The notes: generated from the sequence alone by a model not told the origin. DNA of 63,845 nucleotides from an uncultured Saprospiraceae bacterium (GCA_964403985.1 CAYOIL010000001.1:1-63845); one strand, 5' to 3'. Shown: positions 5,449 to 23,038, counted from the stretch's first letter. A program made the numbers and translations.

Positions 5449-8400
5449 ATGAAACAAATAGTATTATTTATATCCTTTTTTGTCATTGTTTCGATTTCAA
5501 ATGTATTTGGAGGAGATGATATTTGTAATGCGACAGAGATTGATTTAAATGATGAATTGACAGAATTTGATAATACATTAAATACGAATTCAACAATTGT
5601 TCCACCACCATTTGGAGGTTATGTAGGACCGGATACATGGATAGAATTTGAGATGCCAGTAGGGCCGCTTTATTTAACAATAGAAGAACTAAGTTTAATT
5701 AATCCGGCAATAGCTATTTATGAGGGACCATGTACAGATCCCAAATTATTGTATAATGTATTGGATAATAATTGTGATGGTTCTGAGTCGCCAGCATTAT
5801 TAATTGAAAATCTAGAACCTGGAGAGACATATTATTTACGAATATGGCCAGAAAATGGGAGTCAGAATGGTACTTTTTTAATTGGCTTTTCGGATATGAT
5901 TTCTACGATTCCAAATTTTGAAACATATGAAGATGCTTTTATAAACGGAGATTGTATAACGCTTACACCCCAACAAGGAGGTCAACAAGGCTGTGCTTGG
6001 TATCAAATTCCAATTGATTTTAATTTCTCGTTTACTCATACAATGACAGCAAACTTTGGTGTATTAAATGGGAATGGTGCTGATGGAATTTGTTTAGTAT
6101 ATCAATCTGCAGGACCTAATTTTTGTGGAGGAACAGGATCTGGAATTGGTGCAGGAGGAATGCCGAACTCAGCTATTTTTGAATTTGATACTTGGCAAAA
6201 TGGGTTTTTAAATGATCCTGTTGATGATCATACTTCTCTAAATATAAATGGAGATATGAATCATGCTAATTCGATAGAAGGACCAGTGGTCTTAGGAAAT
6301 ATTGAAGATGGTCTAGATCATACTCTTACATTTGAATGGAATCCTATAGGCAATCAATACACCTTGTTTTTCGATGGAATGATTGTATTATCTGGGAGTT
6401 TTGACTTTATAACAAATTGTTTTGGAGGAGAAAACTTAGCTTACTGGGGATATACATCAGCAACAGGTGGTTCGACTAATCTACATGTTATATGTCCAGA
6501 AGTTGAAGAATACTTGCCAAGCACAATTGATTATTTAGAAATTGATTTATGTGCAGGAGGTTCTTACAATGGATTTACAGAAAGTGGTTATTACACGGAA
6601 TTGGTTAATGGTCCAAATGGGTGTTTACACCAGAACAATATCTTATTAAATATTGAAGCCGCATCTCCACCTAATTTTATTGATACCATTATCTGTTATG
6701 GAGAAAGTGTTGTCGTTAATAATCAAATATTTTCAGAACCCTTTTTATATTTAATAGAAACACAAACAGACATTGGCTGTGATAGCAGTATAATTCTAGA
6801 TTTGGAAGTAATAGAATTAGAAGTAGCATTTGATTCGATGCCCTTTTTATCTTGTAATTTTTCAGAAATAGAAATTGGTCCAAGTATTGAATCTAATGTA
6901 CCAGAAGATCAGATAAGTTATTTATGGAGTCAAAATGGTGAAACAACAGAAAGTATTTTTGTAAATACTCCAGGTGATTATACTGTTTTTGTTTCTGTTG
7001 AAATTGATGGTGTTACATGTCAAAGCTTCGAAACAATCTCAATTAGTGCAGAAGATGAACCTGTAATTGAAAGTTTAGATGATATATTTCTTGATTGTGA
7101 GACAAGTGACTCTACATTTATTTTAACTAATAATACTTCAACCATAAATTCTGAAGTTACTTGGTTCTATGATAATACTATTGTAAGCACGAATAATTCA
7201 ACTCAAGTTGTAAATCCAGGACAATATATCTTTTTTCTTCAAGATACAATTTCTGGTTGCTCTGCTTCAGATACAGTAAATGTTGTTGCTTCTGATGAGC
7301 AACCAATGGTCAGTATTGAAGGACAAGAGTTGAATTGTGAATTAACGGAATTTATTCCAGAAGTAACTACCTCCAATGATGTAGTAGAATTTAATTGGTT
7401 TCTTGACAGCTTTTTAGTTTCTAATACCGAAGAGATAATTATTGACCAAGGAGGAACATATGTTTTACAAGTACAAAATGCGAATGGCTGTTCTTCTCAA
7501 ACACAAATTGAAATCAATCAAGATACGATTGCACCAGAAATAGATATTCCAAATGGAATTATTTTATGTGATGAAAATTCAGTTACTATTTACACAGATT
7601 TATCTTTTGATAATTTCTATGGTATTTCAGATCCTGAAAATATAGATTTTAATCCTGACTCTATTACTTTTAATGCAGAGGGAGAATATATTATTAATGC
7701 AATAAATCCAATTAACGAGTGTTTCAATCCTGATACTATTCTTATTACTTCTTTAGGAGATTCTCCTGAAATTGTCTTTATTTCTGATACACTTAATTGT
7801 AATACCACTTCCTTTCCATTAACTTCTATAACGAATCAATCAGGACTTATTTATGAGTGGGCAGTAGACGGATCTATTATTTCTCAAGATTCTTTGGTTT
7901 CTATTGATTCACCATCCATTTATTATCATACGGTTACGACAGCAACAGGATGTTCTACCACGGATTCTATTTTAATTATTGAAGACCTTTCTGCGCCAAT
8001 TGTTAATGTTTCTTCTGATACAATTGATTGTGAATTTCCAAGTACAATCCTTCAGTTTGAAAATGAAGATTTTTATTCTACAATATGGACAGATGAAGAA
8101 AATAATGTTTTTAATTCTTCAGATTTAGTAGTTAATCAACCGGGTGTTTATTTTGTTGATGTTGAAAATATAATAACAGGTTGTCATACTTATGATACAA
8201 TTGAAGTAATTTCTAATTCTATCTTTCCAGATTATTCTATTATGAATGGAAATTTAGATTGTAACCAAACGAGTCTTGAATTGGACTTTACAATTAATAA
8301 TAATTATGAAACTTTAAATTGGTCTGGACCATCTCAGTTTCAATCAACAGAGATTAATCCTACAATAGAAGAAGATGGGGTTTATAATATATTTGTTGAT

Positions 8401-9693
8401 TTAGGTGGAGGATGTATTATTGATACATTTATTATAATAAGTGAAGATTTCGAAAGTCCAAATTTAGATATTATATATGATACAATCACATGTAATAAAA
8501 ATCTTGCAGATATATCTTTAATAGGTGAAAACTCTTCAGTTATTAATTTAATAAATCCGGAAGATAATACGATTAATGACATTACTTCTTATTCGACAGA
8601 CTTACCGGGTGAGTATATGGCAATAGTAATAGGAGAAAATGGATGCTCGGATAGTATTATTTTTGAAATACTAGCATTTACTTCTCCCCCTTCTTTAGAC
8701 ATAGCGATTCCAGATCCTATAACATGTATTAATACAACAGCAGAAATTGATGCAACTTCTTTAGAAGCTGAATCTTTTTCTTGGTCGGGACCAGATGATT
8801 TTTTAGCATTTAATTCTACAATTACAGCAATGAATGGCGGACAATATTTAGTAGTCGTTGAAGATTCCTATGGCTGTACAAACTCTGCTACAATTAATGT
8901 AGAAGAATTTCTTGATCTACCAGAAATTGACATAACTGGAGGTAGTTTAAATTGTGAAATAAGCGAAACAACAATTGTACTTGATGGAGAAGGGATTGAT
9001 GATTTAATTGAATGGAGATTAAATGGAGATTTTATTTCTGATCAGCAAAATATAAGTGTAAATCAAGAAGGATATTATTATTGTTTTGTAACTAATGAAT
9101 ATGGGTGCACATCAATTGATTCTTTCTTTGTTAATGAAAATATCGAATACCCAAATATTTTGCCAATTACAGAAACGGATATCGTTTTTTTCCCTACTGA
9201 AAATGAAAAGGATATAATAGTTGATGTTAATTCTAATGTTGATTATTCACTAAGTTGGATACCAGAAAATGCTGTGTCATGTTCAGATTGCGAAAGTACT
9301 ATTTTAAATAATTCAACAATTGACAGTTTAATTGTAATCGTAAATAATATTTATGGATGTATGGATACTTTGGTTTTTCAAATAAGAAGTGAATATTTCC
9401 CTCAAGTTATGGTTCCTAATGTTTTTACTCCGAATGATGACGGGAATAATGACTTTTTCACATTATTTGCTAATGATAAAATTCAAGAGATTGTTACCAT
9501 GTTAATTTATGATAGGTGGGGAAATAAGGTCGAAGAAAACAACAATTTTCTTCCCAATCAACCGAACTTGGGATGGGATGGTAAATTAAATGATTTAAAT
9601 GTTGTAGCAGGAGTGTATGCTTACTATTTTAAAGTGTTATTAGTTGATGGAGAAGAAATAGAAGTAATAGGTGATGTTACTGTTATGAGGTAA
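5449..9693 (+). CDS. Giant T9SS-secreted adhesin-like protein: N-terminal Cys-framed domain, L-type (bacterial) lectin-like domain, about 11 Cys-pair Ig-like repeats and a type B CTD
   Basis: Signal peptide, then a lectin-like block (CAWYQIPIDF...ADGICLVYQ...FEFDTWQN...DDH). Repeats of about 75-80 aa each end in a G-C-x-S/T motif. The C-terminus VPNVFTPNDDGNNDFF...YDRWGN is the gliding-motility-associated (type B T9SS) sorting domain. Confidence 0.85.
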   Translation: MKQIVLFISFFVIVSISNVFGGDDICNATEIDLNDELTEFDNTLNTNSTIVPPPFGGYVGPDTWIEFEMPVGPLYLTIEELSLINPAIAIYEGPCTDPKLLYNVLDNNCDGSESPALLIENLEPGETYYLRIWPENGSQNGTFLIGFSDMISTIPNFETYEDAFINGDCITLTPQQGGQQGCAWYQIPIDFNFSFTHTMTANFGVLNGNGADGICLVYQSAGPNFCGGTGSGIGAGGMPNSAIFEFDTWQNGFLNDPVDDHTSLNINGDMNHANSIEGPVVLGNIEDGLDHTLTFEWNPIGNQYTLFFDGMIVLSGSFDFITNCFGGENLAYWGYTSATGGSTNLHVICPEVEEYLPSTIDYLEIDLCAGGSYNGFTESGYYTELVNGPNGCLHQNNILLNIEAASPPNFIDTIICYGESVVVNNQIFSEPFLYLIETQTDIGCDSSIILDLEVIELEVAFDSMPFLSCNFSEIEIGPSIESNVPEDQISYLWSQNGETTESIFVNTPGDYTVFVSVEIDGVTCQSFETISISAEDEPVIESLDDIFLDCETSDSTFILTNNTSTINSEVTWFYDNTIVSTNNSTQVVNPGQYIFFLQDTISGCSASDTVNVVASDEQPMVSIEGQELNCELTEFIPEVTTSNDVVEFNWFLDSFLVSNTEEIIIDQGGTYVLQVQNANGCSSQTQIEINQDTIAPEIDIPNGIILCDENSVTIYTDLSFDNFYGISDPENIDFNPDSITFNAEGEYIINAINPINECFNPDTILITSLGDSPEIVFISDTLNCNTTSFPLTSITNQSGLIYEWAVDGSIISQDSLVSIDSPSIYYHTVTTATGCSTTDSILIIEDLSAPIVNVSSDTIDCEFPSTILQFENEDFYSTIWTDEENNVFNSSDLVVNQPGVYFVDVENIITGCHTYDTIEVISNSIFPDYSIMNGNLDCNQTSLELDFTINNNYETLNWSGPSQFQSTEINPTIEEDGVYNIFVDLGGGCIIDTFIIISEDFESPNLDIIYDTITCNKNLADISLIGENSSVINLINPEDNTINDITSYSTDLPGEYMAIVIGENGCSDSIIFEILAFTSPPSLDIAIPDPITCINTTAEIDATSLEAESFSWSGPDDFLAFNSTITAMNGGQYLVVVEDSYGCTNSATINVEEFLDLPEIDITGGSLNCEISETTIVLDGEGIDDLIEWRLNGDFISDQQNISVNQEGYYYCFVTNEYGCTSIDSFFVNENIEYPNILPITETDIVFFPTENEKDIIVDVNSNVDYSLSWIPENAVSCSDCESTILNNSTIDSLIVIVNNIYGCMDTLVFQIRSEYFPQVMVPNVFTPNDDGNNDFFTLFANDKIQEIVTMLIYDRWGNKVEENNNFLPNQPNLGWDGKLNDLNVVAGVYAYYFKVLLVDGEEIEVIGDVTVMR

Positions 9694-9697
9694 TTGA

Positions 9698-11257
9698 TTA
9701 TAAATCTTCAATGTTTTGTAAATATTCTTCGGCTTTATCAATAAGTGCATTTTTCTCTTCGTCACTCTTTTTTCTCCATACGTTATACATCATTCCAATT
9801 CTATTATTCTTACCAAGCTTATCTTCATTTATTGCATAAAATCTCCAGTATAAAGAATTAAATGGACAGGCATTTTCTCCAGTTTTATCTTTATAATTGT
9901 AATGACAGCCTTTACAGTAGTCACTCATTTTATTAATATAATTCGCTGATGAAACGTAGGGTTTGGTCCCTACAATCCCACCGTCAGCAAATTGACTCAT
10001 TCCTCTAGTATTAGTAATTTCTACCCACTCTATTGCATCGATATATATCCCTAAATACCATTCATCTAATTCGTCGGGATTAATTTCTGTAAGAAGAGCA
10101 AAGTTTCCTGTTACCATTAAGCGTTGAATGTGATGAGCATAAGAATAATTCAAACTTTGATTTATGGAATGACTCATACAATTCATTTTTGTTTCTCCAG
10201 TCCAAAAATAATCGGGTAATTTTCTTTTATGATTAAAGAAATTCATTTCTTTAAATTCAGGCATTTTTGCCCAATATATACCTCGCATAAATTCTCTCCA
10301 ACCAATTATTTGCCTAACAAATCCTTCTATTTGAGCAATGCTAATTTCTTCTTGGTTTAATCTCCATTTTTCAATAGCTCTTTCAACAACAGTTAATGGA
10401 GAAATCATTTTGGAGTTTAATGTAAAGGATATTCGAGAGTGATATAAAGACCACTCTCTTTCAACCATTGCATCTTGATATTTACCAAAATTTTCTAAAC
10501 AGTCATCTAGAAAAAAGGTTAGTATTTCTTCTGTTTCTTCATAAGTTGTTGGCCATATAAACTCTTCTTGATTTATACGTCCTATTGTTTTTACCCCTTC
10601 TTTTTTAAGCAGAGAAATGATTTCACTTACATTTTTTGAGAATAACTTTGGTTTTATTATTTCGTGTTTCTTATTTAATGCTTTTCTATTTTCTTTATCG
10701 TAATTCCATTTTCCAGTTAATGGCTTATTCGGATCCATTTCATCCATTAAAAGAGTATATTTTTTCCGAATACTTCTATAAAATGATTCCATTATTATTG
10801 TCTTATTACCCTCAAAAAAAGTAGCTAAGTATTCTCTTTTGGTAAGAAAATGTTCCGTATCAAAAACTTCAGTATTGATATTTATTTCTTTACATAGCGC
10901 TATTAATTGCTGATCAAGACGATATTCATCAGGTAATTGATATTCAAATGACTTTATAGAATACGTTTTTATTATGTCTTTTATATTCTCAACCAATGAA
11001 CCATTGTTTCTAGAGTCATCTAAGGTATAATAAAGAACATGATGTCCTTCATCTTTTAGCACATCAGACATGTTTCTCATTGCAAGGAAAAAAGCAACTA
11101 TTTTCTGGATATGATGCGAGGTATATTCCATTTCTTGTTTCATCTCCATAAATAGATACAGAGTGTTTTCGTCCTTTGAATTGAACCAAGAATGTTCTTT
11201 ATTTAGTTGATCACCTAGAATAAGTCTAAGTGTTTTATAAGTAGCTTTTAATTTCAA
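9698..11257 (-). CDS. Cryptochrome/photolyase family protein of the FeS-BCP type, i.e. a (6-4) photolyase-like PhrB/CryB class
   Basis: About 520 aa with a COG3046-like layout. The C-terminal C-x2-C-x12-C (CKGCHYNYKDKTGENAC) plus an upstream Cys (NCMSHS) matches the four-Cys [4Fe-4S] ligand spacing of PhrB. Confidence 0.8.
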   Translation of the reverse strand: MKLKATYKTLRLILGDQLNKEHSWFNSKDENTLYLFMEMKQEMEYTSHHIQKIVAFFLAMRNMSDVLKDEGHHVLYYTLDDSRNNGSLVENIKDIIKTYSIKSFEYQLPDEYRLDQQLIALCKEININTEVFDTEHFLTKREYLATFFEGNKTIIMESFYRSIRKKYTLLMDEMDPNKPLTGKWNYDKENRKALNKKHEIIKPKLFSKNVSEIISLLKKEGVKTIGRINQEEFIWPTTYEETEEILTFFLDDCLENFGKYQDAMVEREWSLYHSRISFTLNSKMISPLTVVERAIEKWRLNQEEISIAQIEGFVRQIIGWREFMRGIYWAKMPEFKEMNFFNHKRKLPDYFWTGETKMNCMSHSINQSLNYSYAHHIQRLMVTGNFALLTEINPDELDEWYLGIYIDAIEWVEITNTRGMSQFADGGIVGTKPYVSSANYINKMSDYCKGCHYNYKDKTGENACPFNSLYWRFYAINEDKLGKNNRIGMMYNVWRKKSDEEKNALIDKAEEYLQNIEDL

Positions 11258-11426
11258 TCTCTTTTTTTATATAAATGGATTTTTATAAAGGAATGTTTAG
11301 GTGTTAAAATCCTATTTATTTATAATCTCATTAAATGACTTGTGTTTTCAAGACTTGTTTTTCAACAATTTAATCTTAAACACAGGTAAATATTTTTTCT
11401 TATTTTACCAATCTTAATTTATAGCA

Positions 11427-13736
11427 ATGACACGATATATATTTTTAGCAATGAGTTTCTTCCTTTGCTTTTGGGCGAAAGCTCAAATTAATGAAGGCTT
11501 TTTCAATTTCTCATACGATCAAAAGGATGGCTCTATTCACTTAGAAGTTGATGAAGAAAAAGGAGAATTCCTTTATGTTAATTATTTGTCATCTGGATTA
11601 GGGTCAAATGATATAGGCCTAGATAGAGGTCAGATTGGTGATAACAGAGTTGTTGAATTCAAAAGGTATGGGAACATGCTTTACTTAATAGAAAAGAATT
11701 TGGATTATAGGGCGGACAGTGATAATGAGAATGAAAAAGCATCGATTGAGGAGGCTTTTGCAAGTTCTGTATTATACTCATTTCCTATTGTAAAATCTGA
11801 GGGAAAGGTCCATACGATTAATTTGAAGTCTATGCTTTTGTCAGACAGCCACAAAGTAGCACAACAGCTTAAAAAATCTAAAGAAGGAAGTTATAAACTG
11901 GATAAGGGAAGATCGGCGATTTTGGCAGAATTCTGTAAATCATTTTCTGATAATACTGAATTTCGTTCAATGATAACTTTTGGGGGAAACCCGACTGGAA
12001 AAAATATAAGAACAGTTGTTCCCACTCCGGAATCAATCACCTTGCGGATGCATCATAGTTTCGTGAGGTTGCCAGATTCTAATTATTCGCCTCGTAAATT
12101 TCATCCAGAATCTGGGTATTTTGCACGATCTTTTAAGGACTATGCCGTACCTATAGAAGAAGATATGAATCAACGATTTATTACAAGACATCGACTAGAG
12201 TTATCGACTGAAGGCAATGTGATAGAACCTATAGTATATTATATAGATAGAGGTTGCCCAGAACCGATAAAATCAGCATTGATGGAAGGGGCTTCATGGT
12301 GGAATCAAGCATTTGAAGCTGCTGGATTTAAAGATGCTTTTCAAGTAAAAGAACTTCCTGAGGGTGCTGATCCGCTTGACGTGAGATATAATATGATTCA
12401 GTGGGTGCATAGAAGTACAAGGGGGTGGTCATACGGTGCAAGCGTAGTAGATCCCAGAACAGGTGAAATTTTAAAAGGTCATGTATCTCTTGGTTCTTTA
12501 AGAGTTCGACAAGATTACTTGATAATGCAAGCCTTGATGTCTCCATTCAATGGTGCAGAAAACTTTGATGTGATGAATCCAATGACTCAAATTGCTTTAG
12601 CAAGATTACGCCAACTTTCGGCGCATGAGGTAGGACATACTATTGGTTTGGCGCATAATTTTGCGGCCAGTACAAATGATAGATCTTCGGTTATGGATTA
12701 TCCACACCCAAAGTTGAAATGGACTGGAGAAGATATAAATTTTACAGATGCTTATGATGATAAAATAGGAGAGTGGGACAAACAAGCGATTAAATATGGC
12801 TATTCTGTTTTTGATGAAAATGAAGCAGAGGAATTACAAAAAATTATAGAAGAAAACCACACAAAAGGACTTTCTTATATTACAGATTCTGATGCTCGTC
12901 CAAGTGGAGGAGCTCATGCTGACGCCCATTTATGGGACAATGGATCGGATATTGTAAAAGAATTAAACGATTTATATAAGATACGTGCTTATGGATTTAA
13001 AAATTTTGGGGAAGCGACGATAAGCGAAGGGACTCCTTATAGTGAATTAGAAAAATACATTGTTCCACTCTATATGATGCATCGATATCAACTAGAAGGT
13101 GCGGCAAAATTATTGGGAGGGGTTCATTATTCTTATGATGTAAAGGATGGTGATGAAATAAAAAAGCTTGAAAAAGTATCGGAAAAAGAACAAAGTGCAG
13201 CACTTGATGCCATTTTAATTACATTGAGTAATGACTTTTTGAGTCAAGAAAAAATTGTAGAATTTATACTTCCTAATGCACAAGGATATAGGAAATCAAG
13301 AGAATCTGCCAAAGGTAATATGGGGCCAGTTTATGATCCGAATGCATTAATTTCGGCTTCTGCAAAACACACCTTAAGACTTTTGCTCAACCCTCAAAGG
13401 CTGAATAGATTAGCGGAACCGAGTTACTCTTTTGGGGAAACCCACCTTGAAAATTATTTATCGAAAATTATTAAAACAATAGAATCAAATAGACATCAGG
13501 GGGATTTATTAAAAGAAATACAGCTTGATTATTTGATTTCTGCATACCATTCTTCGGCATTATATCCTACTGCAAAAAATGAGATTTATAAGGCGATTAT
13601 TAAGATTAATAACTCTTCAATGACTCCTGTTTATATGAAAAACAAGATAGATCAGTTTACAAAAGGAACGTATAAAGGGGAATATATTTTTGATAAAATT
13701 ACAATTCCGCCAGGTTCTCCTATTGGTTGTCATTAA
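11427..13736 (+). CDS. Secreted zinc metalloprotease (metzincin-type motif; DUF5117/DUF4953-like family)
   Basis: Signal peptide and an HEVGHTIGLAHN (HExxHxxGxxH) zinc site. Confidence 0.8.
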   Translation: MTRYIFLAMSFFLCFWAKAQINEGFFNFSYDQKDGSIHLEVDEEKGEFLYVNYLSSGLGSNDIGLDRGQIGDNRVVEFKRYGNMLYLIEKNLDYRADSDNENEKASIEEAFASSVLYSFPIVKSEGKVHTINLKSMLLSDSHKVAQQLKKSKEGSYKLDKGRSAILAEFCKSFSDNTEFRSMITFGGNPTGKNIRTVVPTPESITLRMHHSFVRLPDSNYSPRKFHPESGYFARSFKDYAVPIEEDMNQRFITRHRLELSTEGNVIEPIVYYIDRGCPEPIKSALMEGASWWNQAFEAAGFKDAFQVKELPEGADPLDVRYNMIQWVHRSTRGWSYGASVVDPRTGEILKGHVSLGSLRVRQDYLIMQALMSPFNGAENFDVMNPMTQIALARLRQLSAHEVGHTIGLAHNFAASTNDRSSVMDYPHPKLKWTGEDINFTDAYDDKIGEWDKQAIKYGYSVFDENEAEELQKIIEENHTKGLSYITDSDARPSGGAHADAHLWDNGSDIVKELNDLYKIRAYGFKNFGEATISEGTPYSELEKYIVPLYMMHRYQLEGAAKLLGGVHYSYDVKDGDEIKKLEKVSEKEQSAALDAILITLSNDFLSQEKIVEFILPNAQGYRKSRESAKGNMGPVYDPNALISASAKHTLRLLLNPQRLNRLAEPSYSFGETHLENYLSKIIKTIESNRHQGDLLKEIQLDYLISAYHSSALYPTAKNEIYKAIIKINNSSMTPVYMKNKIDQFTKGTYKGEYIFDKITIPPGSPIGCH

Positions 13737-15962: not shown

Positions 15963-16349
15963 TTATTTCTTGTCTCCTCTATGTATTAAATATAAGGTTA
16001 CTAAACAAATAATAATCCCGAAAAACTCTCGGGTATATTCAATATGAGCTTTTCCTGCTTCCATCGATTGGACAATACTCGGCATTCCTTTTTTTATCCA
16101 ATTTATTATTTCCGGAATTAATATTGATCCATAAATAATAAGCAAGCATGCGATAATTATAAGTATATATTTATTGATTTTTGTAAAAAGAGACATTAAT
16201 AAAAGCCCAGCTATTGTTCCATAAATTGAAATCCATAATACAGGATCAGGATCATTAAATTGTGTGTAGGCAAAAAGAATAAATAGAATGCAGAAAATAA
16301 TTCTGATTGCAAGGGATAGATTAGTTCTTGTGGAGTAGAGTTTTGGCAT
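15963..16349 (-). CDS. Small four-TM membrane protein (TMEM220-like, unknown function)
   Basis: Four hydrophobic spans and an NDPDPVLW motif. No other signature. Confidence 0.5.
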   Translation of the reverse strand: MPKLYSTRTNLSLAIRIIFCILFILFAYTQFNDPDPVLWISIYGTIAGLLLMSLFTKINKYILIIIACLLIIYGSILIPEIINWIKKGMPSIVQSMEAGKAHIEYTREFFGIIICLVTLYLIHRGDKK

Positions 16350-16507
16350 AAAGAGTTTCGTTTTCTAATACTGCAATATAGTTTTAACAATGAGATTTAC
16401 ACAAGTAAGTTTATAATTTTAAAATATTTCACCTTTTGAAGGGAGATAAGGGAGGAAATTAACTAGTCCTGAAATAAGTTTACACAAAAGTAAACGGTTC
16501 CAAATCA

Positions 16508-16665
16508 CAGCAGAAAGATTGGTGTTTTAATTAAAAGACTGACTAAGAAATAAGGGATATATTATTTGTCGAATGTGCCCCCTGAGCAAAGGAATAGGAC
16601 AGCAGAAAGATTTATGTTTTAATTAAAAGACTGACTAAGAAAAAAGGGATATGTTATTTGTCGAA
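16508..16665. repeat. Tandem direct duplication: two 66-bp units (16508-16573 and 16600-16665) with a 92-bp period, spanning the stop codon of the GT2 gene
   Basis: The units CAGCAGAAAGATT(GG/TA)TGTTTTAATTAAAAGACTGACTAAGAAA(T/A)AAGGGATAT(A/G)TTATTTGTCGAA differ at about 4 positions. Each contains the palindrome TTTTAATTAAAA and the reverse complement of ...TTCGACAAATAA (F-D-K-stop). Confidence 0.85.
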
Positions 16666-17595
16666 GGGGGGGTTCTCTATATTCGATTCCCGCACAATAT
16701 AAAGAGGTCTTTCTTTTACATTATTTCCTATTCGACTAATATATTCTCCTATTATTCCTATTCCTATCATTTGAACACCTCCAATAAATAAGATAGAAAT
16801 CATTAAACTTGACCAACCTTGAACGGTACTTTCAAAAAACAACCATGAAATCATTGTATAAATTATCAATACAAATGTTAGTATGAAAACAAAGATGCCC
16901 ATACTAAAAACAAACTTTAATGGTGCATCACTAAATGCAGTTATTCCATCAACAGCAAAACGCAACATTTTTTTTAAGGGATAACCTGTTTCTCCTGCAT
17001 TTCTTTCTGCTCGATCAAATTCTACAAACGTTTGACGGAAGCCAATCCAACTAATCTGTCCTCTAAGAAATTTATTCTTTTCTGGCATTTCTCTTAATAC
17101 CTCTACAATTTTGTGATCCATCATTCTAAAATCACCTGTATTCAATGGTATATCAATACTAGTTATTGAGCGAAGAATTTTATAAAAAGCAGAAGCGGTG
17201 ATTTTTTTAAAAATGGATTCTCCTTTTCTTGAACGCCTTTGGGCGTATACAACTTCGAAACCATCATCCATTTTACTTGCCATCTCAAGAATTAATTCCG
17301 GAGGGTCTTGAAGATCAGCGTCTATAATTACAACTCGATTTCCTATACATCTATCTAGTCCAGCTGAAACAGCAATTTGATGTCCAAAATTGCGACTAAA
17401 ATCTATGTATTTGACTGATTCATTTTGGGCGGAAAGCCCCTTAATTAATGAAATAGACTTATCGACACTACCATCATTAATAAAGATATATTCTCTTGTT
17501 CCACCCAATGAAGACATTACTTCTTCAAGTCTATCATATAAAAGTTGAATGTTTTCTTCCTCGTTATAAATTGGGATAATTACTGAGTAGTCCAT
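16654..17595 (-). CDS. GT2 polyprenyl-phosphate glycosyltransferase (DPM1/GtrB/ArnC-like)
   Basis: IIPIYNEEENI, INDGSVDKS and IDADLQDPPE (DxD), with two C-terminal TM helices typical of the GtrB/ArnC class. Confidence 0.85.
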   Translation of the reverse strand: MDYSVIIPIYNEEENIQLLYDRLEEVMSSLGGTREYIFINDGSVDKSISLIKGLSAQNESVKYIDFSRNFGHQIAVSAGLDRCIGNRVVIIDADLQDPPELILEMASKMDDGFEVVYAQRRSRKGESIFKKITASAFYKILRSITSIDIPLNTGDFRMMDHKIVEVLREMPEKNKFLRGQISWIGFRQTFVEFDRAERNAGETGYPLKKMLRFAVDGITAFSDAPLKFVFSMGIFVFILTFVLIIYTMISWLFFESTVQGWSSLMISILFIGGVQMIGIGIIGEYISRIGNNVKERPLYIVRESNIENPPFDK

Positions 17596-17614
17596 GGGGT
17601 AAAGATAGATTTGT

Positions 17615-18166
17615 TTAGGCGTTTTTTCTTCCTAAAATGAAACCAAAAATTGAACCACAGATTCCACCAATTATATGAGCAGCTTGACTCACTGAATCTT
17701 CTTGAAATGTATGAATCACCTCTTTCCCAACAAACAATAAGGCTACTAATATAAAAGTAAGTGGAATCTTGCCATCTTTCATATTTGTAAAACTCACAAG
17801 TAGAATTAACATAAAAACAATACCACTTGCGCCGAGTAAACCAGTACTAAAAAAGGCCATGTTTATAATTGCAGTAATTAATGCAGTAATTACAATCATG
17901 AATATTATTTTGTTACTACCGTATTTCTCTTCTACAATAGGGCCTAGAAGCAAAATGAAAGTCATATTTCCCAGTAAATGATCTATACTGCCATGACCAA
18001 TTACATGTGAAAACATTGAAAATAAAACAACAGGATGTGCACTGAACTGGGTTCCTACAGCAAAGTAAGACATAAGCCCTCCCGCCATTATGCTATCGAT
18101 AAAAAACACAGCAGTACATATTAATGCAAATGTTAGTATTACTGGTGAATTATAAGATATCTTCAT
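17615..18166 (-). CDS. Rhomboid family intramembrane serine protease
   Basis: HLLGNM (HxxxN), GASGIVF (GxSG catalytic Ser) and AHIIGGICG (catalytic His) within six TM spans. Confidence 0.8.
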   Translation of the reverse strand: MKISYNSPVILTFALICTAVFFIDSIMAGGLMSYFAVGTQFSAHPVVLFSMFSHVIGHGSIDHLLGNMTFILLLGPIVEEKYGSNKIIFMIVITALITAIINMAFFSTGLLGASGIVFMLILLVSFTNMKDGKIPLTFILVALLFVGKEVIHTFQEDSVSQAAHIIGGICGSIFGFILGRKNA

Positions 18167-18176
18167 TTTTTTATTT

Positions 18177-21128
18177 TTAATCAGTTACTTTAATAGGAGC
18201 AACATAATCTTCTAACGAATTATAAATTACAGACTGTATCCTAGGACGGTAATTCTTTTTTCCAAATTTATTGTTTTCCATAGTAGGATACGTTCTGTTA
18301 CTTAACATAACATAAACGATATTATGTTCTGGGTCTACAAAAGTACAAGTTCCTGTAAAACCTAAATGACCAAATGTTGAAACAGAAGCAAATTCACTCA
18401 TATTCTCATATTTTGACAAATCAAGTTCTTTCATATCGAAACCTACACCGCGGCGAGTAGAATATTGATATCTACTTGTAAATTCAAGAACAGTCTGAGG
18501 AGACATATATTCTTTACCTCCATAATATCCTCCATTTAATAGCATTTGCATTAATATAGCAAGGTCATGAGAGTTACTAAATAATCCAGCATGACCACTC
18601 ACACCACCCAACATTGCAGCTCCCATATCATGAACGTGTCCATGGATTACTTGATTCCTGAAATAGGAATCTTTTTCAGAGGGAACAATATTACTCAAGG
18701 CAAATTTTTCTTTTGGATTGTAACTGGTATATCGCATGCCAAGAGGTTGATAAAAGTTATGATTTGCATAAGCATCTAGTGTCATCCCACTCTGTGCCTC
18801 TACTACTTTCATCATAAAATAAAAACCAATATCGCTGTATTTGTATTTTTTATTTTCACGTAGATCAGAAACTAGAATCCGACTCCATACAGAGTCTGGA
18901 TAGTCTGACCTTAAATATAGGTTATTGGCCACCTCAACATTAAATGAATCGGTTCTTACTTTCCTGTAATATTTGTCTAGTACTTTTCTTTTTTTAGAAA
19001 GAGGGTCAATCGTATTTTTATAAAACGGAATCCAAGAAGCTAGGCCAGCATGATGTGTCATCATTTCTCGAATTGTCTGTGTTTTTTTATTTGTTGTATC
19101 AACTTGAGGCATTATGCCTAGAAGTGTTCCATCAATATCAAGTTTTCCTTGATCTTTCAGTCGCATGATAGAAACTGTAGAAGCGGCAATTTTGGTAATT
19201 GAGGCAAGGTCATAAATATCATTAATTTTTACTTCCTTTTTTCCATCGTATGTATGATTTCCATAGGCTTTATGCCACACGATTTTTCCGTCTTTAGCAA
19301 TAAGAACTTGACAACCTGGGGCTGCTTTCTTTTTGATCATCTCCTCTACAATTTCATCTATTTTCCTTAGGGAGTCCATACTCATACCTACTTCAATCGG
19401 TTGTACATACCCTAGTCGACCAATCCCTGTACGTTGAATTCCTGTTCCGTATTTAAATTTTCCAGAACTTACAGGTAGTCTACCACGTATATCTGCTGCC
19501 CCAAAAATGGCTTGAGCAGTTCGATCTTGCATGATGGAGTCATCAGTGTAAGCGACAACTATTTCATCATGTTCTTGGAAATATGTCAACGCATATGGAG
19601 AACCGAATACCACCAAAATCACATTTGTTTCAGCAGATAATTGATTTATAAATGTTCTTGTTTTGCTAGAAACACCGAATTGATTTTTCTGTAATTTATT
19701 CATGTCATGAATAGAGACAATTACTCGATCATATTTTTTTAATTTTTCAATTGTTCCATTAACTCCAAGAGTCGTGAAATCTTTATTTGTTTGAAAGTGG
19801 TCGAATTTTGCATAGCCATCAAGTCGAGTTTGAAAATCAGTTTTTGAGATCGTATTTATCGAAAGGCTAGCGTAAGAAAAAGAATCAATATTTACGAAAG
19901 GTATTAAGTTGTCAGAATCAGCAACCAAAGTGATTGCTTCGGCAAGAAGTCTACTTTTGAGACTTAACCCTTTTGGCGTGACAAGGTCTTTAGTAATTTC
20001 ATTCAACATGATTCTAGGTCTATAATTCAGCCCGAGCTCATATTTTTTTCTTAAAATTCTCGATACACTTTCATCGATTTGACCTTCTTGAATTATTCCA
20101 TCATCAACATATTTTTTGATGGCGTCAATCGCTACTTTTGTATCTCTTGGCAAACAAATAATGTCATTTCCTGCAAGGATCGCTTCTGCCTCTGCAACTC
20201 CAGGAGGAAAATGTCTTGTGACCCCTTCCATCTCCATCGCATCGGTAATTATTATGCCATTAAAACCAATGCTGTCTCTTAATACATTTTTTATTGTGTA
20301 TTCAGAAAGTGTTGTTGGACGGTTTTTTCTATTGTCAAAAACAGGAACATTTAAATGTGCAATCATCATACTACTAATCCCTTTATCTGATAAATATTTA
20401 AAAGGATATAACTCTAAGCTGTCAAGTCTTTTTCTGCCGAAATTAAGTACAGGAAGACCATAATGACTGTCTACATCTGTATCTCCATGTCCGGGAAAAT
20501 GTTTTGCGCAAGCTAATACGCCAGCATCTTCCATTCCACGTGCGTATTGAAATGATTTAGAGGCAACATTGTCTTTGTCTTCTCCAAATGAACGATTGTT
20601 AATTACAGGGTTTGCAGGATTATTATTCACATCTACTACTGGCGCAAAGTTTAAGTGAATTCCTATTCTTTTCAAGTCATAAGCTACCTGACGACCCATT
20701 TCATAAATCAATTTATCATCGCTGATTGCACCTAAAGTTAATTGTCTTGGATAACTAACAATGTCTTTTTTGAATCGCATTCCTAGACCCCATTCGCCAT
20801 CTATTGCTACAATCAAAGGAATGTCAGCTAAACCTTGATAAATATTAGTTAATTCTGCTTGTTTTACTGGAGTTCCTTGAAAAAAGCATAAAGATCCAAC
20901 TTTATAATCTTTAACTAATTTTTTAACATGGTCAATATGATCTTGCCCTTTGTTCGAATGAGCCCGAACCATAATCAGCTGACCTATTTTTTCTTCTAGA
21001 GTCATCCCTCCTAGCTTTTCACTAACCCATGCCTCTTTGGGGTCGATCATTGCGATGGGATCAACTTGAGCTTTTGGGCCTTGAGCCCATAAAAAAAGCA
21101 CTATAACTGATAAAATATAGTTTCTCAT
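18177..21128 (-). CDS. Fusion of a GH3 beta-N-acetylhexosaminidase (NagZ-like) with a serine-hydrolase/beta-lactamase-fold domain
   Basis: The N-terminal half carries KHFPGHGDTDVDSH and ITDAMEM (GH3). The C-terminal half carries SITK (SxxK) in a class C beta-lactamase/esterase-like domain. A signal peptide is present. Confidence 0.85.
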   Translation of the reverse strand: MRNYILSVIVLFLWAQGPKAQVDPIAMIDPKEAWVSEKLGGMTLEEKIGQLIMVRAHSNKGQDHIDHVKKLVKDYKVGSLCFFQGTPVKQAELTNIYQGLADIPLIVAIDGEWGLGMRFKKDIVSYPRQLTLGAISDDKLIYEMGRQVAYDLKRIGIHLNFAPVVDVNNNPANPVINNRSFGEDKDNVASKSFQYARGMEDAGVLACAKHFPGHGDTDVDSHYGLPVLNFGRKRLDSLELYPFKYLSDKGISSMMIAHLNVPVFDNRKNRPTTLSEYTIKNVLRDSIGFNGIIITDAMEMEGVTRHFPPGVAEAEAILAGNDIICLPRDTKVAIDAIKKYVDDGIIQEGQIDESVSRILRKKYELGLNYRPRIMLNEITKDLVTPKGLSLKSRLLAEAITLVADSDNLIPFVNIDSFSYASLSINTISKTDFQTRLDGYAKFDHFQTNKDFTTLGVNGTIEKLKKYDRVIVSIHDMNKLQKNQFGVSSKTRTFINQLSAETNVILVVFGSPYALTYFQEHDEIVVAYTDDSIMQDRTAQAIFGAADIRGRLPVSSGKFKYGTGIQRTGIGRLGYVQPIEVGMSMDSLRKIDEIVEEMIKKKAAPGCQVLIAKDGKIVWHKAYGNHTYDGKKEVKINDIYDLASITKIAASTVSIMRLKDQGKLDIDGTLLGIMPQVDTTNKKTQTIREMMTHHAGLASWIPFYKNTIDPLSKKRKVLDKYYRKVRTDSFNVEVANNLYLRSDYPDSVWSRILVSDLRENKKYKYSDIGFYFMMKVVEAQSGMTLDAYANHNFYQPLGMRYTSYNPKEKFALSNIVPSEKDSYFRNQVIHGHVHDMGAAMLGGVSGHAGLFSNSHDLAILMQMLLNGGYYGGKEYMSPQTVLEFTSRYQYSTRRGVGFDMKELDLSKYENMSEFASVSTFGHLGFTGTCTFVDPEHNIVYVMLSNRTYPTMENNKFGKKNYRPRIQSVIYNSLEDYVAPIKVTD

Positions 21129-23038
21129 TTATTTATTTTTTCTTGCAAGGAAGGGTCAAGCTGAATCGCTTTATTGTGATTGAATTGACCACTTTCTTCG
21201 TCTCCATTTATATAATAAGCATTCCCTAAATTGTAGTATGCAAAAGCTTCATTTGGGCGAAGTTTAACTGCTTCTTCAAAATATTTTATTGCTTCATTCT
21301 TTTTTCCTCCCATGCCGTTACTTACAGCTAAAAGTCTGACCGTTTCGTAATCCTTAGGATTTAAATTATAAGCTTGTTGTAAATATGATAGGGCCGCGTT
21401 TAAATCATTTTTCTTTTCACCAAAATATCGGCCACCATCTCGATAAGCGATATGCATATTTATCAAACATTGGGCATGTACAGGGTTTATTTTTAGTAAA
21501 TTGTTATAACTCTTAATGGATCTGTCATACAGATTCATATACTGATAATTATTACCCATTATCAAGTACGCATTAGAATACCTGGGATGAAGGTTTAATG
21601 CCTTTTCCAAGTAACTATTCGACAATTCAAGCATTGTTTTTTGTTCTTCTTTATTTTTAATTTTGGCTCCTTTCGTTGATAAAGCACCTGCTGCTCCATG
21701 CAAGGCTTTCGCGCTATTGTTTGATGTTTTTACATCTGTTGTTAACAAGGTGAAATTATCTTTCCATACAAATGATCGGCTGATTGTTTTTATAGAAAAT
21801 AATAGACAAGTTATTCCTATAAGTCCTATTATAATGGGGCTTGCGCTACGCTTGCCCAAAAGGCTTTTGATAAGAAGGACTAATGCAAAAAAGAATCCAA
21901 AAGAAGGTAGAAATAGAAAGCGCTCACTTATATTTGTTCCTATATTGAATGGAATATTTGACATTAAAAACAAGAACCCAAAGTAGAAGATTAATCCATA
22001 TGCCCACGCGCTTCGTTTTAGCAAACCTAAAATAGCTAAAACACCTCCGCCCGCATACAGAATCATCGAAAGAATAACGCCAAAATCATTGAAAGACTTA
22101 ATACTAAAATGATAGGGATAATAATCCGAAGTTAATGGATGTGGAAATACTAATAATTGAATGTACTTTCCCAAATTGAAAATAATTGATGCCCACTTTT
22201 CTGACGAATTAAAAGACATTAAAGTTCCATCAACATATTTCAAAAATGGATTATTCATTAATTCCATACTTTGTTCGGCAATTGCTCCACTTAAAACACC
22301 TTGTCGAGCAATAAGAAATAGAACTGATGTTATACTTAATAAACCAGCTCCTAAAAATAGCTTTGCTCTCTGTTCGTCATTTTTATAAAAAAAGAATACT
22401 GTCAATGGAATAATCAAAACAAAGACTAATGCGTGTTCTTTAGAAAAATAGCAAATGAGAATGGATAAAAAAGCGAGTATATAGTTTTTGATATTTAGCT
22501 TTTGGGTAAATAGAATAACCATTGAAAGGATGCCGAAAAGGCCAACCATAATTTCATCTCTTCCTTTCACATTAGCAACAACTTCAGAATGAATGGGATG
22601 ACAAGTAAATAAAAGGCTTATGACAAGAGCAAGGACTTTATGGTGTTCTTTAAACCGAGTTCTGCTTAAAATTTCTTTAGTAAAAACATAGAGAAGTAAA
22701 CAGAGTATTGCATAAAGAAGCGTATTGATAAGGTGACTCATATAGGCTTTTTGGCCCCATAATGATTGTTCTATTGCAAAAGTTACGAGAGAAGCAGGCC
22801 TATACCGACCACCTTGTACAAGCGTTTCTTTTCCTTCAACTTTGAAAAAGCCGTAAAATGTATCTTTAGTAAATAAACTAGGAATTCCTTTGACTCCTTG
22901 TGTAACAAACTGGTTGTCAGTAAAAACGATCGCATCATCTTGCGCATAATTAAAGCCAATAGAGGGACAATACAGCAAAAAAGCTAGTATCCCAATAAGC
23001 AATAAATGAGCTCTGGAGTTATTTGTTATTTCTTTCAA
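21125..23038 (-). CDS. TMTC-like GT-C glycosyltransferase (DUF1736-type polytopic domain) with C-terminal TPR repeats
   Basis: The first-loop motif FNYAQDDAIVFTDNQF and the RYRPASLVTFAIE block are followed by about 10 TM spans and C-terminal TPRs (NAYLIMGNNY, AFAYYNLGNAYY). The stop overlaps the next gene start by 4 nt (ATGA). Confidence 0.7.
   Translation of the reverse strand: MKEITNNSRAHLLLIGILAFLLYCPSIGFNYAQDDAIVFTDNQFVTQGVKGIPSLFTKDTFYGFFKVEGKETLVQGGRYRPASLVTFAIEQSLWGQKAYMSHLINTLLYAILCLLLYVFTKEILSRTRFKEHHKVLALVISLLFTCHPIHSEVVANVKGRDEIMVGLFGILSMVILFTQKLNIKNYILAFLSILICYFSKEHALVFVLIIPLTVFFFYKNDEQRAKLFLGAGLLSITSVLFLIARQGVLSGAIAEQSMELMNNPFLKYVDGTLMSFNSSEKWASIIFNLGKYIQLLVFPHPLTSDYYPYHFSIKSFNDFGVILSMILYAGGGVLAILGLLKRSAWAYGLIFYFGFLFLMSNIPFNIGTNISERFLFLPSFGFFFALVLLIKSLLGKRSASPIIIGLIGITCLLFSIKTISRSFVWKDNFTLLTTDVKTSNNSAKALHGAAGALSTKGAKIKNKEEQKTMLELSNSYLEKALNLHPRYSNAYLIMGNNYQYMNLYDRSIKSYNNLLKINPVHAQCLINMHIAYRDGGRYFGEKKNDLNAALSYLQQAYNLNPKDYETVRLLAVSNGMGGKKNEAIKYFEEAVKLRPNEAFAYYNLGNAYYINGDEESGQFNHNKAIQLDPSLQEKINK

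Follow-up and report, generated by a model that had tools for sequence, protein, structure and literature searches.

The window examined here is a 63,845-nucleotide (nt) stretch of DNA from an uncultured Saprospiraceae bacterium (GCA_964403985.1 CAYOIL010000001.1:1-63845), the genome assembly of which is 81% complete. Its subject is a string of four co-directional open reading frames (ORFs) on the minus strand, which spans positions 23038..16654 according to ORF calling and encodes, in this order, a TMTC-like glycosyltransferase of the GT-C fold class with C-terminal tetratricopeptide repeats (TPRs), a predicted hydrolase of peptidoglycan fragments, a putative rhomboid protease and a glycosyltransferase of family GT2 (Table 1). 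The stop codon of the GT-C gene and the start codon of the hydrolase gene share a 4-nt ATGA overlap, the hydrolase and rhomboid genes lie 10 nt apart (18167-18176) and the rhomboid and GT2 genes 19 nt apart (17596-17614), so that the arrangement described in an earlier note on this DNA is exact in the ORF coordinates. Judging from this spacing alone, the four genes may be co-transcribed. A promoter scan found 36 sites, compared with 33.9 in shuffled sequence, and a terminator scan 4 sites, compared with 3.5, i.e., neither gave an excess in the DNA scanned; the former used the sigma-70 consensus, from which Bacteroidota promoters differ.

Table 1. Predicted products of the four-gene string and of a related gene elsewhere in the window (aa, amino acids)
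Predicted product	Length	Coordinates	Strand	Features and basis
TMTC-like GT-C glycosyltransferase	637 aa (TTG start)	21125..23038	-	11 membrane helices in residues 1-425, TPR domain at about 428-637
Secreted NagZ-type GH3 beta-N-acetylglucosaminidase fused to a beta-lactamase-fold serine hydrolase (PBP4B/AmiE-like)	983 aa	18177..21128	-	Pfam, PDB matches, motifs
Minimal six-helix rhomboid intramembrane serine protease	183 aa	17615..18166	-	Pfam Rhomboid, catalytic motifs
GtrB-type polyprenyl-phosphate hexosyltransferase	313 aa	16654..17595	-	GT2: GT-A domain and two C-terminal membrane helices
Second TMTC-like paralogue, outside the cluster	641 aa	59666..61591	-	37% N-domain identity to the 637-aa protein, E 1.2e-67

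The 637-aa protein and its kinship with TMTC enzymes

The predicted structure of the 637-aa protein, together with its conserved motifs, identifies it as a putative GT-C enzyme of the TMTC type. A model built with AlphaFold2 from an alignment of 26 relatives (38-68% identity to the 637-aa protein) reached a predicted local distance difference test score of 87 and a predicted template modelling score of 0.81, with 11 membrane-length helices before residue 425 and the TPR helices after it. When residues 1-440 of the model were aligned by VIA-align against 48,161 representative chains, the matches included AglB (Z 19.1, 325 residues), Pmt1-Pmt2 (17.1, 343 residues), Pmt4 (16.6), ALG12 (16.4), ArnT (16.3, 332 residues), STT3B (16.2) and PglB (14.9), and further AftB (13.7) and AftA (12.9); sequence identity to Pmt1-Pmt2 and Pmt4 in the structural alignment was 10-12%. 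The earlier note had allowed for the protein lacking GT-C homology, and the Z scores of 16-19 to AglB, Pmt1/2, Pmt4 and ArnT contradict this. The GT-C matches surfaced in VIA-align alone: a Foldseek comparison of the whole model with the PDB was swamped by TPR matches, and the PDB matches listed for sequence and profile searches, whether started from the whole protein or from the 26-member alignment, were all TPR proteins.

The motif FNYAQDDAIVFTDNQF occupies residues 29-44, near the N-terminus, and contains the first of several residues that correspond to the conserved motifs of human TMTC1-4, as set out by Eisenhaber and colleagues (PMC7801869). The DD pair of the first outer loop (EL1) of TMTC proteins corresponds to D34-D35; their ..YRP motif (SHKSYRP-like) to GGRYRP at 76-81, with R78-Y79-R80-P81 conserved; their HPIHT of helix 3 to HPIHSE at 147-152, with H147-P148-x-H150-x-E152 conserved; the Asp of EL2 before helix 4 and the Lys of EL3 after helix 5 to D161 and K200; and the Arg of the AERV-like motif before helix 10 to SERF at 371-374, with E372-R373 conserved. 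All of these residues are invariant in 26/26 of the aligned relatives, and KGRDE (158-162) and DYYP (305-308) vary little or not at all. The idea of a TPR scaffold devoid of catalytic activity was rejected, the catalytic motifs being invariant throughout the alignment. The loops rich in Lys and Arg are alternate short ones (121-134, 178-185, 218-226, 341-343 and 391-398), by which the DD loop, EL4 (the long one joining helices 7 and 8) and the TPR domain are assigned to the periplasmic side. Fold, motifs and helix count thus agree with the architecture that had been read from the sequence at first sight, namely a first-loop DD motif, a polytopic core and C-terminal TPRs.

Two observations count against this assignment. 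The TMTC 'DW' of EL4 is D305-Y306 (DY) here, so that four of the five TMTC motifs are matched in kind. Furthermore, Pfam recognizes TPR repeats in the C-terminal third of the protein, but the N-terminal 437 residues scanned alone gave no Pfam match at E <= 10, so that the assignment to the family depends on the relatives, the motifs and the predicted structure. A search with residues 1-440 returned at least 2,794 relatives among 8,000 candidates scored; PF13231 is present in many of them, and the source annotation of a few reads 'protein O-mannosyl-transferase' or 'glycosyltransferase family 39' (GT39). Within the 26-member alignment, PMT_2 was matched by 15 sequences (best E 1.6e-12) and TMTC_DUF1736, the Pfam model of the loop joining helices 7 and 8, by 13 (best E 8.7e-6); a scan of the whole genome with TMTC_DUF1736 matched the third paralogue alone, at E 0.002, below the cut-off. 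Hidden Markov model searches for the domains that the earlier note had named thus recovered TPR and Glycos_transf_2 in the proteins of the string, and DUF1736 and PMT_2 in relatives, not in the 637-aa protein itself.

The acceptor could also be something other than protein, such as lipid A or the core of lipopolysaccharide, a capsule or exopolysaccharide, or peptidoglycan, in the manner of ArnT, GtrC-type or Emb/Aft enzymes, in which case the TPRs would serve only for localization. ArnT, AftB and AftA do appear among the structural matches, the fold by itself cannot separate protein from glycan acceptors, and the next gene encodes a probable peptidoglycan-fragment hydrolase. However, the motifs, notably HPIH.E and ..YRP, fit TMTC rather than ArnT, the combination of 11 helices with C-terminal TPRs is the architecture of the protein-modifying TMTCs, and the protein-modifying GT-C enzymes AglB, Pmt1-Pmt2 and Pmt4 score as high as or higher than ArnT and its like, so that we regard a non-protein acceptor as quite unlikely.

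The GT2, the hydrolase and the rhomboid

The 313-aa protein is predicted to be a polyprenyl-phosphate hexosyltransferase of the GtrB/ArnC type, in keeping with the DPM1/GtrB/ArnC class proposed for it at the outset. Its homology to the GtrB of Synechocystis (sll0501, 5EKP) is full length (E 2.2e-91, residues 2-303 on 27-328 of 341); ArnC is matched in the PDB at E ~3e-41 and Pfam Glycos_transf_2 at E 1.5e-27, and the DXD motif reads DAD (92-94). The best NCBIfam model is that of streptococcal PgfS (NF047588; E 5.4e-83), but the score of 278.7 bits against a cut-off of 500 bits indicates that the protein is not a PgfS equivalog. Two GtrB-like synthases, this one included, were detected in the genome. 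Membership of a known O-antigen modification cassette, which had been considered as an alternative, is contradicted by the surroundings: the neighbours of the GT2 are the rhomboid, a TMEM220-family protein and a Y-family polymerase-like ORF, and the sole match to the GtrA family (PF04138) in the genome, itself 81% complete, lies on another contig, C370. A Gtr O-antigen prophage cassette is excluded on these grounds, there being neither GtrA nor GtrC next to the GT2.

Two features downstream of the GT2 may be recorded here. A 128-aa membrane protein matching Pfam TMEM220, an animal-named family, at E 1.1e-22 is encoded at 15963-16349 on the minus strand, 305 nt downstream of the GT2, and tblastn found no such gene in the loci of the same genus nor in the 80 orthologous GT-C loci described below. 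A 67-nt direct repeat occurs at 16507-16573 and 16599-16665, in copies that are 94% identical and 92 nt apart, the second of which takes in the final 12 nt of the GT2 gene.

The 983-aa protein carries a signal peptide, a Glyco_hydro_3 domain at residues 43-360 (Pfam, E 5.8e-80) and a Beta-lactamase domain at 590-951 (E 1.3e-38), and is thus predicted to be a NagZ-type GH3 enzyme fused to a serine hydrolase of the beta-lactamase fold. The GH3 part matches an N-acetylglucosaminidase (6k5j, E 7e-70) and Bacillus subtilis YbbD/NagZ (3bmx, E 4e-61) in the PDB, and contains KHFPGHGDTDVDSH at residues 209-222, to which we assign what we take to be the NagZ-type signature, KH[FI]PG[HL]Gx4D[ST]H. The motifs SITK (643-646), YSD (764-766) and HLG (921-923) fit the pattern SxxK, YxN/D and H/KxG of such serine hydrolases. 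The NCBIfam models PBP4B (E 1e-54, 186 bits) and beta-N-acetylhexosaminidase (E 1.2e-45, 156 bits) are both matched below their cut-offs, of 385 and 207 bits, respectively. AmiE, the partner of NagZ in B. subtilis, presumably has a beta-lactamase fold like that of PBP4B. By analogy with NagZ and AmiE of B. subtilis (PMC8054146), the protein is likely to act in the stepwise breakdown of muropeptides. Relatives occur in 92/101 sampled genomes of the class Bacteroidia, most of them full length, so that it counts as a core enzyme of the envelope.

The 183-aa protein is a predicted rhomboid (Pfam Rhomboid, E 1.5e-16; NCBIfam GlpG, E 2e-13, below the cut-off) with its catalytic motifs intact. Rhomboid catalytic motifs are HxxxN, GxSG and AHxxG, and they are found here as HLLGN (63-67), GASG (112-115) and AHIIG (163-167). 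For both this protein and the hydrolase, the Pfam and motif evidence agrees with the identities first put forward, a rhomboid protease and a fusion of NagZ to a beta-lactamase fold.

Conservation of the neighbourhood and a proposed two-block reading

Relatives of the 637-aa protein were located at 80 loci in Saprospiraceae and Lewinellaceae, each with up to 10 kb of flanking sequence on either side; in a FastTree phylogeny these group with the 637-aa protein apart from its three paralogues, and are thus orthologues. The hydrolase gene is the immediate downstream neighbour, in the same orientation, in 41 of them and follows at a distance of 3 kb in one more, which makes 42/73 callable loci; it stands elsewhere in one locus, and 7/80 loci have too little downstream sequence to be called. 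Paired genes invariably share a strand; the median distance between them is roughly 100 nt, and the protein identity is 35-46%. The pairing is scattered over the orthologue tree and requires at least 14 changes, as would be expected if it were ancestral and had often been lost. When all neighbouring ORFs were clustered, the sole further recurrent gene was that of an FtsX/MacB-type permease (~405 aa), which follows the hydrolase in 24/80 loci, some 3 kb past the GT-C gene, and lengthens the conserved block. At one locus (L044, 12063-13670) a GH3 part occurs downstream of the GT-C gene with no beta-lactamase-fold part in 10 kb; the fusion may have been divided or cut short at this locus.

By contrast with the hydrolase, neither the GT2 nor the rhomboid was found by tblastn at any of the 80 loci. 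The GT2 orthologue occurs in five genomes of the same genus, and all of these (5/5) have the order GT-C, hydrolase, rhomboid, GT2, tightly packed in three, where the GT-C and hydrolase genes overlap (3/3), and with 1 kb or 6.5 kb inserted between hydrolase and rhomboid in the other two. One of these two genomes (L115, G003:C3) encodes at 6230-11751, between hydrolase and rhomboid, two PKD-domain proteins, of 1242 aa and of 599 aa, the latter with a type IX secretion sorting domain; it is conceivable that beta-sandwich surface proteins of this kind are clients of TMTC-type enzymes. Outside the genus, GT2 orthologues (55-63% identity) in three other genera have none of the other three genes nearby (3/3), and no TMTC-like gene was found at 29 GT2-orthologue loci sampled class-wide (42-64% identity). 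The rhomboid adjoins the GT2 in the same 5/5 genomes and at none of the other loci examined. The adjacency of GT-C and GT2 that had been expected to hold in relatives is therefore, in the loci examined, confined to the genus, and the argument from a conserved operon to a dedicated module fails.

These observations are best explained, with a probability of roughly 0.55 for the explanation as a whole, by a composite of two blocks, rather than by one evolved module, together with a proposed glycosylation mechanism. The first block would consist of the TMTC-like GT-C/TPR enzyme translationally coupled to the periplasmic hydrolase, an old Saprospiraceae synteny; the second, rhomboid plus GtrB-type GT2, would have been joined downstream of it in this genus only. 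As to the mechanism, the GT2, the enzyme class of which is clear from its homology, would use a nucleotide sugar, on the cytoplasmic side of the membrane, to charge undecaprenyl phosphate with a hexose. The lipid-linked sugar would then be flipped to the periplasmic face, a step for which the genome offers one GtrA-family gene, located elsewhere. Finally, the GT-C domain, by way of its first-loop DD pair and the conserved SERF arginine, would take one sugar off this lipid donor, or off one like it, and attach it to an acceptor that the periplasmic TPRs hold. The acceptors would most likely be Ser/Thr residues of envelope proteins. There is a precedent in streptococci, where GtrB/PgtC2 and PgfS/PgfM1 glycosylate envelope proteins, PBP1a and peptidoglycan enzymes among them (PMC12041528).

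Several points weigh against this explanation. For the last step we infer activity, donor and acceptor from the fold, motifs and topology that were observed. The hydrolase is absent within the available sequence in 30/73 callable loci, and a TMTC-like gene stands within 1.5 kb of the hydrolase orthologue in none of 29 loci from other families, so that the pairing may be inherited synteny without function. In addition, a different membrane protein follows the GT2 orthologue elsewhere: a TPR-less protein of 625 aa with a weak PMT_2 match is encoded directly after it in three other lineages (G009, at L119 13664-15538; L156; L165), the latter two belonging to the 29 GT2-orthologue loci. The genes overlap in G009, and they have the look of a GT2/GT-C pairing of another kind. 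The match of the 625-aa protein to the 26-member alignment was weak (hhalign, 74 columns, 25% probability), and with the G009 protein as query no match was found in the genome of the window, the assembly being 81% complete.

The original suggestion was of a single operon, self-contained and dedicated to glycosylation in the periplasm, in which the GT2 makes a donor specific to the GT-C enzyme and the rhomboid and hydrolase mark the target. The four enzyme identities behind this suggestion stand, as do the co-directional arrangement with its overlap and short gaps and the common gene order, tight in three genomes, within the genus; the genome has two detected GtrB-like synthases in all, and distant GT2 paralogues adjoin TMTC-like genes in other Bacteroidia (e.g., G117:C15, 273 nt apart). 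However, the linkage of GT-C to this GT2 was not seen beyond the genus, in view of the counts of 0/80, 3/3 and 0/29 given above; the two halves are separated by inserts of 1 kb and 6.5 kb even within it, and the cluster has no flippase gene. A dedicated operon is accordingly considered unlikely by us. The relation of donor synthase to transferase is still biochemically plausible, but it is not conserved operon structure that shows it. As one of two GtrB-like synthases detected in the genome, the GT2 is a fair candidate for supplying donor to the four TMTC-like paralogues, a proposal that is reasonable and not established by conserved linkage.

A further possibility concerns the first block, namely that the TMTC-like enzyme glycosylates the hydrolase or binds it as a partner, tying protein glycosylation to peptidoglycan turnover. 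The frequent and always same-strand adjacency (42/73) and the translational overlap within the genus would be in line with this, and precedent exists on two counts: some glycosyltransferases are encoded next to the proteins that they modify, and in streptococci peptidoglycan enzymes are glycosylated (PMC12041528). Against these stand the loss of the adjacency at least 12-14 times on the tree, the presence of the hydrolase in 92/101 class genomes when the GT-C family is missing from 38/101, the 0/29 loci of other families with the pairing, and the hydrolase sequence, which has no Ser/Thr-rich stretch (maximum 9 Ser/Thr per 30 residues). A client or partner role for the hydrolase is thus decidedly doubtful, and the composite of two blocks with the mechanism above remains our preferred reading.

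Paralogues and distribution of the TMTC-like family

Four TMTC-like paralogues are encoded in the genome, of which one, of 641 aa, lies in the same window (Table 1). This paralogue had no Pfam match at E <= 0.001, TPRs included; its neighbours are dprA and an alkaline phosphatase gene, and its stop codon overlaps the dprA start by 1 nt. Among the 101 sampled genomes of the class, a TMTC-like N-domain was found in 63, with 1-12 matches each, and not found in 38, and close GT2 relatives (E <= 1e-45) were found in 62. One of the class genomes, G124, is unpublished and also contributes one of the 29 hydrolase loci (L143); no conclusion rests on it. Both genes were present in 44 genomes, one only in 19 and 18, and neither in 20. 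The co-occurrence of TMTC-like and GtrB-like genes, which the earlier note proposed to survey, is therefore a weak association (odds ratio 2.6, p = 0.03, uncorrected for phylogeny), and its weakness is a further point against the explanation preferred above. Other Bacteroidia carry four or five TMTC-like genes in tandem (G123:C51:3064-10087 and G079:C71:3017-10100), and several GtrB-like matches fall in open frames of 649-666 aa (e.g., G056:C11 and G128:C92), suggesting fusions.

A Prevotella paper leaves the O-oligosaccharyltransferase enzyme unnamed, and a role of the TMTC-like family as the general O-oligosaccharyltransferase of Bacteroidota was considered. This is weakly disfavoured by the absence of the N-domain from the 38 genomes and by a scan of 14 control genomes, Bacteroides thetaiotaomicron included, in none of which TMTC_DUF1736 was matched, although the same model also misses the 637-aa protein. 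Bacterial TMTC homologues have been mentioned in passing in the literature; our literature search, judged mostly from titles and abstracts, found no experimental study of them, in agreement with the dearth of characterization remarked on before. The 637-aa protein thus adds to a known bacterial family for which no experimental characterization was found. It might be speculated, as a long shot, that the Saprospiraceae enzyme serves the NagZ::serine-hydrolase exclusively or is physically bound to it, and that bacterial TMTC relatives are client-specific O-glycosyltransferases, with one paralogue per client class as in animals and all fed from a pool of undecaprenyl-phosphate-hexose made by GtrB-type synthases.

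The locus brings no new principle, but offers two handles, a candidate donor synthase in the string and a candidate client or partner hydrolase beside the GT-C gene, and orthologous loci with the pair of GT-C and hydrolase genes are found in cultivable relatives such as Flavilitoribacter nigricans DSM 23189 (L024) and Aureispira (L001). What is new in detail is the family-wide pairing of the GT-C gene with the NagZ::beta-lactamase-fold gene, which suggests that protein glycosylation and cell-wall turnover are linked, but does not demonstrate it.

As to known systems, animal TMTC enzymes put O-mannose on cadherins, and TMTC loss leads to brain malformations; we take the family to be CAZy GT105. 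Human TMTC proteins have eight to ten TPRs, compared with about five (residues 428-637) in the protein described here, which also differs by its DY in place of DW. It would reside in the bacterial inner membrane rather than in the endoplasmic reticulum, and its donor would be an undecaprenyl-phosphate-sugar instead of dolichyl-phosphate-mannose. Like metazoan TMTC1-4, it combines 11 membrane helices with TPRs at the C-terminus, and it has the DD, ..YRP, HPIH.E at helix 3, the Asp/Lys pair and [AS]ER before helix 10 (PMC7801869); the genome encodes four paralogues, the same number as in vertebrates. With the fungal/animal PMT protein O-mannosyltransferases (GT39) Pmt1-Pmt2 and Pmt4 it shares the GT-C fold, the first-loop acidic pair and, in its relatives, PMT_2; differently from them, it has no MIR domain, and TPRs instead.

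The GT2 resembles Synechocystis GtrB (5EKP) and ArnC in its GT-A domain, juxtamembrane helices, two membrane helices and DXD motif, and differs from GtrB/ArnC in having neither GtrA/GtrC neighbours nor a prophage context. For the hydrolase, the likeness to the B. subtilis pair NagZ (YbbD) and AmiE (PMC8054146) lies in the GH3 part (E 4e-61) and the NagZ-type motif, the difference being that here both activities would sit in one polypeptide of 983 aa. A functional parallel to the proposed mechanism is found in the streptococcal GtrB/PgtC2 and PgfS/PgfM1 systems, in which a GtrB-type GT2 makes the undecaprenyl-phosphate-sugar and a GT-C enzyme transfers the sugar to extracytoplasmic proteins (PMC12041528); PgtC2, however, belongs to the YfhO family and not to the TMTC type, has no TPRs, and targets Ser/Thr-rich disordered tails.

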